A stretch of 13,936 nucleotides of DNA from Candidatus Heimdallarchaeota archaeon (lineage in GTDB: Archaea; Asgardarchaeota; Heimdallarchaeia; Hodarchaeales; Hodarchaeaceae), in the NCBI GenBank assembly GCA_011364965.1, contig RDOB01000001.1, forward strand, positions 252,026 through 265,961. Direction: 5' to 3'. The position numbers were made by a program, and so were the translations under genes. Under the pieces are notes generated by a model that searched no databases, was not told the origin of the DNA, and saw nothing but the letters and a program-made list of their open reading frames with translations. Positions within the stretch are counted from its first letter, which is position 1; every line of letters starts with the position of its first letter. Shown piece after piece: positions 4,675 through 12,305 of this stretch.

Positions 4675-4999
4675 AATTATGGGATTGGAGGTATTTACGA
4701 CCAAGATGAAGGCCGACTATTATTCCACCAATTCCATGCAATAAAGACAGACCTGTCTCGTGTGGAGCAACCTATCTGGAATCTAGACCTATTACCTGAA
4801 TGCTCCTCTCTAGAGGAAGCTTTTAGCTTTTTAAAAATCAATAGCTTATAATTGCCATATTTCCGACGCTTTTATGCGTTCTCTCCCCTCCGAACCTTGT
4901 GAATATTCAGAATGCCATTCGCTCTATTACAAGCAAAGGAAGTTCTGAAGGTGAGACGAGAAATCTGACAGAAGGAAATCATCAATAGAACCTCCAAAT

Positions 5000-5039
5000 C
5001 CAAGACCAGCTGGATTCTCATTTTTTTTATTAGGAGGTG
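5000..5039 (-). repeat. Degenerate copy A of the 16S 3'-end/trailer element
   Basis: + strand CCAAGACCAGCTGGAT (5000-5015) is identical to 6316-6331. TATTAGGAGGTG (5028-5039) is identical to 12157-12168, the 16S anti-SD end plus the first trailer bases. Confidence 0.75.
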
Positions 5040-5154
5040 CGTTGGGTAACCATTCTCACTTTTATTCAACATGTCCTTCTTCAGATTTGGAGAAAGATGA
5101 TTATAACAATCACCCCAAGATAATATCGTTATAAAGAATTAAGAAATTGGCGGA

Positions 5155-5868: not shown

Positions 5869-6293
5869 TTTTTTCCCCTAACACTTTATATTCAGTTGTT
5901 TGCTAATAATTCCAAAGATGGATTTGTGTCATATTAACAATATTGAGAAGAATTGATTTTATCCAATAAAAGAATATTAGAATTCACTCCGAGCTTTTAG
6001 ATATCTCCAAATCCATGGAATCCATGAATTAGATCATTTCACAATTTATAAATGTATCTAAGGCTGACTCTCTTCTATCAATTAAATAATAATGTTCTCA
6101 TATAACAAATATGAAAAAATATACTTTTATTTGTGAATTGAGTTAACTAGAGAAATGAGAATGAGTTTTTCGCATAAAGATATCTTCAATTACCTTTCAG
6201 AATTTAATAATGAGGGTGAGATAAGTGACATGCTCTCAGGGGAGTTGTGAGTCCCAATAAACTCCAGATTTAAACCCTTGCAGGGAAAGGATC

Positions 6294-6465
6294 GACCTCG
6301 GCCTCATGATTGAAGCCAAGACCAGCTGGATATTCCCAATAGATTCAGGAAATTTTCTGTTCATCAGGTTTTTCTCTTCGATCAACCGATGTGGATCGAA
6401 AATATCCCATTCATGTCGTTAGGCTGTGGATTTGCCATACAAGAACCCAAAAAACCTATTAGAAA
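6294..6465 (-). repeat. Degenerate copy B of the 16S trailer element (structured)
   Basis: 6301-6332 matches 12073-12104 at 30/32. It has a 13-bp hairpin at 6294-6323. A 13-bp stem (6333-6345 with 6453-6465) is homologous to the stem at 12132-12165. Confidence 0.85.
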
Positions 6466-6702
6466 AGAAAAAATAAGCCATATATTAGTTAATCAAATTA
6501 AATAAGGAATTTAATTTCCTCTTTAAAGGATTTTTTCGGTCTCCTACTATTTCTACCTCATAGATTACGACACTAAGGTTACTATCAACATTTTAGCTGC
6601 TAATGGTGAATGTTGTTTGAATGATTGCCAAAGATATACATATAAATAACCGAATTCCAGGTCATTACCGAGACAAAGCAACTCAATCTGTTCAGTATAA
6701 AA

Positions 6703-6933
6703 GTGAATCAAATGAGATTCCATATTCCCCAACGAAGGTTAGAAGGTATTAGAAAAGATATTGAGGCATTAGCACATACAGGGATTTCTTCTTTAGAAAC
6801 AGGAGTTGATATGACTACGGATATAATGACTCTTTTTATAGATCGAATTCGAGCAGAGAACCCTACTTTAACAGAACCAGAAATTTTAAACCATGCTCGT
6901 GAATACATTTATCTTGGTCGGTCGAACTCTTGA
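6703..6933 (+). CDS. Putative antitoxin, MenA1 (Rv0078B)-like small helical protein
   Basis: 76 aa with 'RIRAENPTLTEPEI', resembling my recollection of MenA1-type antitoxins. Overlaps the downstream NTase start by 4 nt (TTGA). Confidence 0.6.
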   Translation: MNQMRFHIPQRRLEGIRKDIEALAHTGISSLETGVDMTTDIMTLFIDRIRAENPTLTEPEILNHAREYIYLGRSNS

Positions 6934-7499
6934 CTGTTGATGTTAAACTGAAGGATTTTATTCAGACTACGATAAGCTGTTTAGAAGAAAGCAGAATAAA
7001 ATATGTTTTAGTGGGTGGAGTAGCAGCTCTTATTTATGGCCGTCCTCGTACAACTCTTGATGTCGATATAGTGATAGATAGTGCTAATATTGAGGATGTT
7101 AAGAGATTAGAAACAACTTTGAAAGCCTATGGATTCTCATTACGAGATAATGAAATAGCTGAAGCACTAGGGGAAAAATCAAACTGTTCTGTCTTTCTAA
7201 AAGATTGTATCTATCGAATTGACATTCAGGGTACTTACTCACCTTTAGATTCCCGGTGTTTAAACAATCGATTATTGATGAAGATCTATGAACAAGACAC
7301 CTATATCCAGAAAGCAGAAGATTTAATTGTAGCAAAATTGGTCTATAGAAGCCCACAAGATTATGAAGATGTTCATGCTATCTTACTTCGGCAAAAGGAG
7401 AAATTAGATTACAATTACTTGAGATCCGTTGCTGCAATAGAGGGGATTGAAAGGCAATTAGATAAAATCCTATCTAGACTGAAAATCAAACCTATGTAA
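6930..7499 (+). CDS. Nucleotidyltransferase toxin-like protein (DUF6036 / MenT1 / AbiEii-like)
   Basis: YVLVGGVAALIYGRPRTTLDVDIV (GG...DxD NTase motif), EDLIVAKL and QDYEDV C-terminal motifs. Confidence 0.85.
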   Translation: MTVDVKLKDFIQTTISCLEESRIKYVLVGGVAALIYGRPRTTLDVDIVIDSANIEDVKRLETTLKAYGFSLRDNEIAEALGEKSNCSVFLKDCIYRIDIQGTYSPLDSRCLNNRLLMKIYEQDTYIQKAEDLIVAKLVYRSPQDYEDVHAILLRQKEKLDYNYLRSVAAIEGIERQLDKILSRLKIKPM

Positions 7500-8665: not shown

Positions 8666-9277
8666 TCACTCTTCACGTTTCCTTCTGCGCGGAATGTTAA
8701 TCAAAACAAGGAATCCAAGAATTAGAAATTCCAAAGTGAATGCAGGAGTCGCCTGTGGGGGAATATGGTAATCTGATACATCAGTCCAAGGGGTGCGTAG
8801 ACCTAATGAAGGAACTCCCTCACTAATCACTCCAAAATCAATGAGAGTTTCGTCCACCAGAACTTGAAGATTAGTTTTATACGTGCAACGAGGGATGGTA
8901 GTGAAATTGTAAGACCAATACCGCAAGGGATGAAGAGTTACCGGTAGATCACTCACATTTAGAAGGATAATTTGACTCAAAAATTCAGTTCTATTCGTTT
9001 CATGGGTTCCAGAGAATGTCACATTCACCTGCTCAAGACGATGGGATTCTACATCCAAATTAGCAATAGCAAGGGTGAAAAAATCCAACGTGATCGTATC
9101 CCAGCATGTTTCATTAATACATCCTCCACACCAGCTGTATTCATGATCAGGAACCCGAATCTGGATAATAGATGAATTGGGAGGAGCTGTAGCAGGAATG
9201 GGACGACCGTGGACAATTAAAAGGAAAAGTAACGGTATAATACTCCATTTAAAAACAAATGAACAGCTTTGATTCAT
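8666..9277 (-). CDS. Secreted/cell-surface protein with C-terminal sorting signal (PGF-CTERM/Heimdall-CTERM-like)
   Basis: Signal peptide, GGCINETCWD motif, and C-terminus TPAF-TLEFLILGFLVLINIP-RRRKREE. Confidence 0.8.
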   Translation of the reverse strand: MNQSCSFVFKWSIIPLLFLLIVHGRPIPATAPPNSSIIQIRVPDHEYSWCGGCINETCWDTITLDFFTLAIANLDVESHRLEQVNVTFSGTHETNRTEFLSQIILLNVSDLPVTLHPLRYWSYNFTTIPRCTYKTNLQVLVDETLIDFGVISEGVPSLGLRTPWTDVSDYHIPPQATPAFTLEFLILGFLVLINIPRRRKREE

Positions 9278-9322
9278 CGTTATTCTCCTAAATTATCCTT
9301 ATTTCATTAATCATGTTACATA

Positions 9323-10309
9323 TTAAGGTTTTATAAAGATAATCACGGAAAAAGAAGGGAAATAAAGAGACTTACTGTCTTTCACTCCATCGAATTTTAT
9401 CTCATATTGCACTATCCAATCAAAGGTTATTGGATGTATTCTCACACTTTCATATTTGTTATCCCAGGTTTCTGCGCCGTCCATGATAACAGCTTCGATG
9501 TTAGGGTAGATAGTGGCGTTGTAGAGGTCTATTGCAGCATAGAGATGACAAATCTCATGAAGGATTGCACATTTCGTGCCAAATAATGGATTCTCCTCAA
9601 AATACACCCACCACTGAATGTATACGTATGTTCCTCTTGATACAGCCAAACAGCTTCCACAATATTCTTGTGCTTGAAAAGCTAACCCTATATCAAATCC
9701 ATGATTTTTCGGGGAGATCCCATAGGAATTGATCGTATAAATCGCATTTCAATCCCAATAATATTCAGAAAGATTTAATGCACAAGCTAACGCGTGTCTA
9801 CCATCATTAAAATAAGCATTAGTATTCCCCAACATCGCTGGATTCCAATCAAAGACAACTAAAGGCATAAATTGTTGATCTAATAGCTCAAATAACCCTT
9901 GAGACCAGTTATAGCCATTAGACATATTAGAGATTTTTAAGTTGTTGACATCAGCGATAAGCCCGTAGATATCCGTCCCATTGTCATCTAATATGGCTGA
10001 GAAATTACTTTCCAACATAATGGTTTGATAAACAATGTGTTTGGTGAGATTTTGCAGGATAGTGAACTCACTGTTAGCTGGTGCGCTAAGAGAATACCCC
10101 CAATCCTCACTAGCAGAGTAAATGTCCGTCACATCGTAGTTGCCAACGTTGAGAGCAAACCACCCATCCCAGGTAGAGCCTGAATAATCACTAGTGCCTT
10201 CAAAAACTTTAGGTATAACAATATCTGGGAGGAGGGGGATTTGTGTAGTAGATAACATCAGATCAGCGTGTACGATAGCCTGAGGAGAAATATCCAAATG
10301 AATGACCAA
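9323..10309 (-). pseudogene. Zinc metalloprotease (metzincin-like) reading frame interrupted by one in-frame TGA
   Basis: ORFs 9749-10309 and 9323-9649 are in the same frame. After the TGA (9749-9751) the frame reads NAIYTINSYGISPKNHGFDIGLAFQAQEYCGSCLAV without stops into the second ORF. It contains HEICHLYAAIDLY (HExxH...D) and a downstream IMD putative Met-turn. The true 5' end is uncertain. Confidence 0.75.
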
Positions 10310-10760
10310 TTATTCCATAATTTATCACAGTTTCATCGATTAACAACTGGACAGAAATGGTGGAAATACAACGGGGTAACCGCGTAAAATTACCCTGTCA
10401 GTAATAATGGGGATAGAGGACTACAGGAAGGTCTTTTGTGTCATTCAATATAATTTGGACAGTAAACGGAGCTTTATCTGTTTCATTAACCCCCTTGAAA
10501 GTTAATGTCACCTGTTCTAGAGTATGAACCTCAGTATCAAGGTTGACAACTATGAGTGCAAAATATGTGACTGTAATATAATCCCAACAATCTGTTCCAT
10601 TAATACAGCCTCCAGAATACCCTGATTCTGATTCAGGTATGCAAATACCAATTACTGACGAATCAGGAGGAGAAAGCACCGAAACGGGGGTAATCCCAAA
10701 CGAAATAAGGAAGTATATACTCAAGACCCAGTATAATTTTAGAAAATGCTTATGATTCAC
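10209..10760 (-). pseudogene. Paralog of the 8666-9277 protein with two in-frame TGA codons and no C-terminal anchor
   Basis: Homology continues past the ORF stop: HYY*QGNFTRLPRCISTISVQLLIDETVINYGII...GYRTR*SDVIYYTNPP versus LRYWSYNFTTIPRCTYKTNLQVLVDETLIDFGVI...GLRTPWTDVSDYHIPP. Ends at TAA 10209-10211. Confidence 0.85.
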
Positions 10761-11854: not shown

Positions 11855-12019
11855 CTAATTAATAATTCTATTTACTCAAGATGGTCCATCAAAGTACTCA
11901 ATATAGGTAGTGACGTCATCATCTGTATCCTCATGTAAATACCAACCACTAAAAACAATTGTTGAACTCATAATATAACCAAGACCGCCAACATGTCCTC
12001 CTCCGTTAATTGCATGGAA
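11855..12019 (-). pseudogene. Possible gene remnant (extracellular beta-rich fragment)
   Basis: Frame FHAINGGGHVGGLGYIMSSTIVFSGWYLHEDTDDDVTTYIEYFDGPS*VNRIIN* looks protein-like but has no clear start. Confidence 0.35.
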
Positions 12020-12049
12020 TTAAAGATTGACTCATGCATTTATCACCAA

Positions 12050-12160
12050 AAACAAGAAAAATCTAGGCCCCAGCCTCAGGATTGAAGCCAGGACCAGCTG
12101 GATAGCCAAGCTCGAAACCTCGAACCTGCTTCTCCCAATAGATGTGAATCTATATCTATT
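12050..12160 (-). ncRNA. Structured 3' trailer of the 16S fragment (copy C): three hairpins and a U-rich end
   Basis: Stem 12154-12165/12132-12143 (12 bp, overlaps the anti-SD), hairpin 12104-12130, 13-bp hairpin 12066-12095, then TTTTTCTTGTTTTT. G-U pairs favour a minus-strand RNA. Confidence 0.65.
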
Positions 12161-12305
12161 AGGAGGTGAGTACTGTCCCAGAGCGGCGTACTCGGGAAAT
12201 CCAGCCGCAGGTTCCCCTACAGCTACCTTGTTACGACTTCAGCCTACTCAACAAGAGTACCATCGAATACGATATTATCCTGTAGCCTCTAGCAGATCCG
12301 TCTCG
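12161..12305 (-). rRNA. rrs: Isolated 3'-terminal fragment of archaeal 16S rRNA (h44 from ~1416, h45, anti-SD) containing an intron
   Basis: Minus strand ...TGAGTAGGCTGAAGTCGTAACAAGGTAGCTGTAGGGGAACCTGCGGCTGGA[30 nt]TCACCTCCT. Upstream CGAG-ACGGATCTGCTA-GAGGC...TTCGA-TGGTACTCTTGT-TGA fits helix 44. The universal CACACCGCCCGTC and everything 5' of it are absent from the adjacent sequence. Confidence 0.93.
12170..12199 (-). other. 30-nt bulge-helix-bulge (BHB)-type rRNA intron
   Basis: Insert TTTCCCGAGTACGCCGCTCTGGGACAGTAC between GGA and TCACCTCCT. Central 4-bp helix GCUG/CAGU, 3-nt bulges GA^U and AC^U, and intron stem UCCCGAG/CUC(U)GGGA. Cutting after the second bulge nucleotide on each strand restores GGCUGGAUCACCUCCU exactly. 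Confidence 0.8.

Follow-up and report, generated by a model that had tools for sequence, protein, structure and literature searches.

In archaea, the leader and trailer of pre-16S rRNA form a helix with a bulge-helix-bulge site, and Nob1 matures the 3' end of the 16S rRNA at site D (PMC8339473, PMC10351888, PMC3326319). Two further kinds of described systems resemble the locus analyzed here: attR-type remnants of tRNA, tmRNA and rRNA gene ends, and HeimM2 of Ca. Heimdallarchaeum, a mobile element that sits precisely between the sole 16S gene and a tRNA gene (PMC8813620). Here we describe an intergenic segment of an Asgard genome, denoted copy B, that is homologous to the real 16S trailers of the same genus. 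Copy B is probably a partial and orphaned paralog of the 16S trailer, with inherited hairpins and no function of its own.

The window, that is, the whole stretch of 13,936 nucleotides that was analyzed, is the final 13.9 kb of contig C13 of an archaeal metagenome-assembled genome (2.97 Mb, 35% GC, 87% complete), which encodes Ras-family GTPases. The locus was also recovered via exact-protein look-ups in an NCBI assembly (contig JAEOUP010000001.1, denoted L061 and L071) and in Logan contigs that stem from several studies. Archaeal SSU and LSU rRNAs are present in related genomes. In the assembly searched, there is no 16S gene, and 23S is represented by an orphan 3' piece only (G000:C12:515019-515329, minus strand, equivalent to L056 9420-9730; model positions 2721-2973). 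This piece is flanked by protein-coding genes, with Ras-family GTPase genes close by, and no further LSU pieces were found within 10 kb on either side of it on contig C12. No tRNAs were found in the window.

Copy B occupies positions 6225-6477 of the window on the minus strand, and no ORF of at least 50 aa crosses it. An assembly artefact as its source was ruled out, because G000, the NCBI assembly and five spanning Logan contigs all carry the same sequence. Hairpin H3 of copy B (6294-6323, minus strand) consists of 13 bp and a 4-nt loop, GGUCUUGGCUUCA-AUCA-UGAGGCCGAGGUC; its counterpart in another trailer copy of the window, copy C, is GGUCCUGGCUUCA-AUCC-UGAGGCUGGGGCC (12095-12066, minus strand). 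As stated in the initial annotation, all pairs are kept, and both sequences fold as perfect 13-bp hairpins, at -15.1 kcal/mol in B and -20.0 kcal/mol in C (folding z of -3.0 and -3.3, respectively, with 0 of 200 shuffles as good). The outer stem, H1, was identified by reading the sequence and in the MFE structure. Its 5' strand, UUUCUAAUAGGUU (6453-6465, minus strand), comes from the 16S tail CCUCCUAAUAG and corresponds to CUCCUAAUAGAU in copy C and CUCCUAAUAAAU in copy R, the trailer of the organism's own 16S gene; its 3' strand, AAUCUAUUGGGAA (6333-6345, minus strand), has the homologs AUCUAUUGGGAG (C and R) and GUCUAUGGGGAA (copy D). The MFE of the segment 6290-6470 (-53.1 kcal/mol, z -2.5) includes this stem, with 13 bp that enclose exactly 107 nt (6452-6346), matching the second stem around ~107 nt that had been noticed before. 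Given that 13 consecutive Watson-Crick or G-U pairs within ~150 nt have a chance of about 4e-4 by our own estimate, the outer stem is not random.

The core, ATCCAGCTGG (6322-6331, minus strand), occupies invariant columns in the alignments of all copies and real trailers and is mostly single-stranded in the MFE of copy B, between the outer stem and H3. A hairpin previously proposed inside the loop, TTCGATC/GATCGAA (6377-6400, minus strand), can be read in the sequence as a 7-bp complement, but it is outside the MFE, straddles the junction of the two modules described below, and is broken in the paralogous copy E. Further downstream, AACTCCCCTGA (6236-6246, minus strand) aligns with the sequence that, in relatives, provides the 3' half of the processing stem between leader and trailer and reads GAACCCCCCUGAYAAAGA. 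The post-H3 regions of B and D fold no better than shuffles, and a candidate fourth hairpin in this region (GGAGUU/AACUCC, with a change from G-C to A-U between B and D) was rejected for lack of folding support (z above 0). Copy B is adjoined, on the opposite strand, by what looks like a toxin-antitoxin pair, a small ORF coupled to a gene for a DUF6036/AbiEii-like nucleotidyltransferase (6703-7499, plus strand).

Three genomes of the same genus, G016, G001 and G008, contain a full 16S gene with the trailer motif immediately after it, in which CACCTCCTAATA is separated by a short spacer from (GGGA)ATCCAGCTGG and a GC-rich hairpin. Copy R, which consists of the 16S 3' end and trailer of the organism itself, was found at the ends of contigs L076 and L077, about 12.9 kb upstream of copy C and about 18.7 kb upstream of copy B. 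Its layout is like that in the relatives, with the canonical GGTAGCCGTAGGGGAACCTGCGGCTGGAT, a 29-nt insertion, and then TCACCTCCTAATA, H1, H2, the core and H3. The comparison with 16S trailers that the initial annotation had recommended shows that copy B is homologous to those of G016, G001, G008 and R. The core AUCCAGC is complementary to the 16S 3' end GCUGGAU, which is universally conserved, and the same complementarity is read in G016, G001, G008 and G002. In the MFE of copy C, which includes a piece of the 16S end, GCUGGAU is closed with AUCCAGC around the anti-Shine-Dalgarno tail, H1 and H2, with H3 directly adjacent (z -5.0). In G002 and G008, GAACCCCCCUGAYAAAGA is predicted to pair with the leader sequence CUUUCUUCAGGAARGAGGGUUC, with energies of -27 to -29 kcal/mol and internal loops of 3 nt; this is the processing stem expected of archaeal pre-rRNA. 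A pattern scan of GTDB for the trailer motif returned only the three known genomes of the same genus, and two metagenome scans, one with a 30-mer from the R flank and one with a 23-mer common to B and D, yielded no matches.

The insertion at the 16S 3' end is 29-30 nt long and lies between GGAU and CACCUCC (window 12169-12198, minus strand; L077 about 6178-6206, minus strand). It forms a 10-bp hairpin in R, is degraded in copy C, and could be a mini-intron or an expansion of the 3' tail just before the anti-Shine-Dalgarno sequence. A genome of another family, G024, contains an insertion of ~31 nt in a full-length 16S, 7 nt further upstream. In addition, one 16S of the same genus, L023 (G008:C9:1695-3919), spans 2225 nt for 1478 model positions, which implies an insertion or intron of ~750 nt.

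The hairpins H3 of the three real trailers (G016, G001 and G008) and of copies B, C and D were aligned with ungapped stems. In this alignment, 96.1% of the cells are paired, and both sides have changed at 7 of the 13 pairs, all in one shared register; the score was not matched by any of 500 shuffles, and registers slid by at least one column are paired in no more than 56% of the cells. This covariation in a single register across six sequences, of the kind that the initial annotation had named as a check, indicates that H3 is a conserved pre-rRNA structure of the genus.

The H3 stems of B and C differ by one U-A/C-G double change and two G-U/G-C swaps, in agreement with the original minus-strand reading, and there is one additional change in the loop. 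The stem differences between the two copies, in H3 and H1 alike, all maintain pairing, and all 13 pairs are formed in H3 of copy B, so that some constraint on the orphan copy may persist. In simulations, however, four random substitutions in the H3 stem left 13 of 13 pairs in 4-20% of the runs, and therefore the B-versus-C comparison on its own is weak, non-significant evidence of selection; the strong support for the hairpin comes from the six-sequence alignment. The proposal that selection acted on the fold thus holds for the trailer family, through the covariation of H3, but nothing shows selection on copy B itself. Among the three variant H3 pairs of B, U-A and G-C are also found in the trailers of G016 and G001, and G-U at the second pair occurs in B only. 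The direction of the U-A/C-G change is ambiguous, with C-G in G008 and U-A in G016 and G001. Population diversity is too low throughout to be informative on constraint, and copy B is identical in all 6-10 independent public contigs. The fold of copy C (z -5.3) contains three hairpins, H1 to H3, and the middle one, H2 (about 12128-12106), is missing from copy B, as was recognized from the outset.

Copy B is a mosaic. Its 5' module (6380-6477, minus strand), which supplies H1's 5' strand along with the larger part of the 107-nt loop, is 88.8% identical over 98 nt to copy E (L071 6088-6185); copy E reads TTTTCTAATAGGTT as in B and continues into unrelated sequence, without the H1 3' strand, core or H3. 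The 3' module (6225-6378, minus strand), which comprises the A-rich part of the loop, the H1 3' strand, the core, H3 and the post-H3 sequence, is a paralog of copy D (L071 3780-3960), with 82.5% identity over 120 nt (L071 3833-3951) and flanks that are 86-87% identical. The junction lies at about 6374-6380. The 5' module matches E and the 3' module matches D; the two were duplicated separately, and the loop of ~107 nt, which had been taken for a swapped one, consists of ~75 nt of E-like sequence and ~30 nt of the D-like A-rich loop.

Both B and D lack H2 and read GGGAAYATCCAGC, as do the real trailers of G016 and G001; H2 is present in R and C. The flanks of the B/D type are 59-75% identical to those of R (64-75% for B alone). 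In the core and H3, identity to R is 85% for B and 95% for D, and given that the flanks of D resemble B, this suggests that D was converted by R. Of the options raised in the initial annotation, a trailer from another operon or version comes closest to these observations. A rival reading is that copy B is an in-place remnant of a second rRNA operon, without H2 and with its 16S deleted, that was not copied from the surviving operon. The 25-40% difference between the B/D type and R in the flanks, the lack of H2 as in other species, and the orphan 23S fragment on contig C12 are compatible with such an operon. We nevertheless find it improbable, considering that two copies of the B/D type and E lie within ~15 kb of R, amid a patchwork of duplications, and that no 16S sequence was found upstream of B or D.

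In a covariance model search, copy B scored 72 bits, compared with 72-81 bits for the real trailers, and yet it lacks the sequences with which a working trailer pairs. The window gave no match to SSU rRNA with the threshold relaxed to E<=1, and the sole 16S-like stretch (12305-12199) is 5.7 kb away from copy B. No GCTGGAT was found upstream of copy B within its unit, which leaves the core without a partner in cis. For the CCCCTGA region of B and D, no plausible leader partner was found by searching for fuzzy complements and for the leader motif of the relatives in the assembly, L071 and L062, where the 5' side of the organism's real 16S is unassembled. Without a 16S gene upstream and without a leader partner, copy B cannot pair in cis with the end of a 16S or build the stem of leader and trailer. 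In the 22 genomes of the genus searched with the covariance model, a single copy was detected beside the 16S gene in G016, G001 and G008, and additional copies were present in this organism only. No orphan trailer copies were identified by pattern and covariance model searches in the 21 other genomes of the genus, many of which have no assembled 16S. A trailer-like match in G015 (L041) was rejected because a 235-aa ORF contains it and its folding does not exceed that of shuffled sequences, and the remaining matches to the core with one mismatch lie in coding sequence.

Copy B, and D with it, might instead work at the RNA level, as a small RNA or decoy in which AUCCAGCUGG, the complement of the 16S 3' end, is displayed between two stems. 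In its favor, the MFE of B leaves most of the core unpaired, flanked by the outer stem on one side and H3 on the other; neither H1 nor H3 is disrupted, pairing survives every difference from C, and the G-U pairs imply a minus-strand-specific fold. However, neither the window nor L071 yielded a relevant match in Rfam scans, orphan copies are lacking in the 21 other genomes of the genus searched, and the 5' strand of the outer stem sits in a module found by itself elsewhere, as copy E. Moreover, the outer stem is not used in the MFE of D, and the post-H3 regions show no folding beyond that of shuffled sequences. The trailer copy family does decay, given that the insertion hairpin of C differs from that of R and that copy A lacks H3, which also argues against a working RNA. 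We therefore regard a small RNA or decoy as unlikely; a cis-acting processing or termination signal of the neighboring genes, the other form of the same reading, is similarly doubtful. The stand-alone non-coding RNA or processing signal suggested in the initial annotation thus found no support. There is, likewise, little reason to expect that B and D are in use in some other way, namely, as transcripts that imitate the 3' flank of pre-16S and either bind the 16S 3' end or titrate maturation factors such as Nob1, or as sites of recombination of a cassette system by which surface-protein genes are loaded downstream of the single 16S gene.

Copy B is part of an island of ~20 kb, directly downstream of the real 16S, that contains at least five co-oriented partial trailer copies (D, E/DR1, C, B and A), is variable among strains and harbors surface-protein genes. 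In the sense of the trailer, the order is 16S with R; genes for the LRR protein and for proteins of 132, 216 and 509 aa; copy D; a 336-aa gene; DR1; copy E; eight genes, including those for an LVIVD-repeat protein and a 330-aa protein; a 16S fragment with copy C; DR2; a gene cassette; copy B; a gene for a 220-aa paralog; copy A; and a 1011-aa gene. Copy C (12066-12305, minus strand) begins with the 16S end of ~107 nt (12305-12199), which shares 82-84% identity with 16S sequences of the same genus, followed by the 30-nt insertion (12198-12169), CACCTCCT (12168-12161) and the trailer part with H1, H2, the core and H3 (12095-12066). A giant 16S intron was ruled out as the origin of this arrangement: ordinary surface-protein genes lie upstream of the fragment, and the real 16S end is elsewhere. 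At window position 12068 (L071 about 12415), the 3' arm of H3 in copy C reads GGG in the NCBI assembly and GGGG in the window; the GGG variant would bulge one base of the stem, which could hint at a loose constraint on the hairpin of C or at an assembly error. Copy A (4991-5040, minus strand) is degenerate and consists of CACCTCCTAATA, an A-run and ATCCAGCTGGTCTTGG, without H3. The ~100 nt upstream of it (window 5023-5120), including CRCCTCCTAATAAAAAA, recur with 82-87% identity at L071 1177-1276 and 8497-8553, at the ends of the genes for the 216-aa and 220-aa paralogs, and therefore what looks like the 16S tail of copy A may partly belong to a gene-end repeat.

The region between copies B and C contains tandem paralogous genes for secreted or membrane-anchored proteins (8666-10760, minus strand). 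A 120-aa ORF (10760-10398) is similar to the N-terminus of a 203-aa ORF (9277-8666), and the ORFs of 186 aa and 108 aa that follow the 120-aa ORF look like its broken continuation.

DR2 (11885-12067, minus strand) is a 183-bp direct repeat that starts at the last two bases of H3 of copy C and is 95% identical to DR1 (L071 5385-5567), which begins exactly at the 3' end of H3. A 6.85-kb piece ending in copy C is absent from contigs L076-L081 (six runs), where the sequence is joined across DR1/DR2; this piece was lost through recombination between the two repeats. The repeats abut H3 of copy C and are distinct from the core, and no variant junction was seen at B. Gaps in contig coverage were set aside as evidence of absence, given that ~60-76% of each run was read and that one apparent absence is contradicted by L072. 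The placement of homology breakpoints at hairpin bases, as with DR1 at the end of H3, could indicate a site-specific process rather than random duplication.

One alternative is that the trailer copies mark att-type scars or act as sites of recombination, with mobile cassettes repeatedly inserted after 16S via the palindromic core and H3, each insertion duplicating a part of the trailer and displacing the older copies, including B, farther away. R, D, C, B and A are all co-oriented downstream of 16S within a variable island and share an exact common core of 15-16 nt (ATCCAGCTGGTCCTG in R, C and D; ATCCAGCTGGTCTTGG in B and A), the start of DR1 coincides with the base of H3, and HeimM2, in a comparable position next to 16S, provides a precedent, with an LRR protein gene adjoining R here. 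Against insertion through the trailer, a Pfam search of ~27 kb (ORFs of the window and of the neighboring contig) detected no integrase, transposase or homing endonuclease, nor do precomputed Pfam lists show a recombinase or integrase, and the sole proven presence/absence polymorphism is bounded by the 183-bp repeats DR1 and DR2 and not by trailer cores. Furthermore, divergence from R does not rise with distance, C being nearer to R in sequence than D, and B is a two-module mosaic with no clean attL or attR. On balance, we consider this scenario to be a minority possibility, although a better one than an operon remnant or a working RNA.

Under the preferred reading, copy B is an inherited relic. 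In the working gene of this organism and its relatives, the core AUCCAGC forms a helix with GCUGGAU at the base of a junction that contains the anti-Shine-Dalgarno tail; H3 is the immediate neighbor of this helix, and the CCCCUGA motif further downstream pairs with the 5' leader to form the processing stem. Copy B retains the core, H3 and the CCCCUGA motif, without a 16S end or a leader as partners. It was probably assembled through recombination of E-like and D-like modules, each of which had been duplicated separately. B and D represent a version of the trailer without H2, resembling that of other species, and R and C the version with H2. The structure-keeping differences between B and C would then reflect the divergence of two working trailer versions under selection on H3, which were copied later. 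The lack of H2 in the B/D version and the presence of two of the three variant H3 states of B in real trailers suggest that the compensatory differences most likely predate copy B. This order of events, like the absence of a function of copy B, we infer from the comparisons described above.

As a relic, copy B is ordinary, and its value lies in defining, by comparison, what makes up the 16S 3' flank of an Asgard genus: the core paired with the 16S 3' end, H3 next to it with its strong covariation, and, farther away, half of the processing stem. If the copies did serve as recombination sites or trans-acting RNAs, this would be a new use of rRNA flanks. The region just downstream of 16S emerges as a hot spot of duplication and gene turnover.

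Compared with the described systems, copy B shares with the 3' spacer of archaeal pre-16S its homology to the trailer, the core that pairs with the 16S end, the covarying H3 and the 3' half of the processing stem; it differs from this spacer in having no upstream 16S or leader partner and in carrying a composite insert of 107 nt in H1. Unlike attR-type remnants of tRNA, tmRNA and rRNA genes, the locus has no integrase that could be found, its proven indel is bounded by DR1/DR2, and B contains no rRNA sequence proper. As in such remnants, however, co-oriented partial copies of a 3' end lie downstream of an intact gene, within a variable island, and have a short identical core in common. HeimM2 carries a homing-endonuclease-like gene, none of which was detected at this locus, and duplicated trailers are not reported for it in the available part of PMC8813620. 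HeimM2 lies directly downstream of a single Asgard 16S gene and encodes an LRR protein, much as the LRR gene adjoins R in the island described here.
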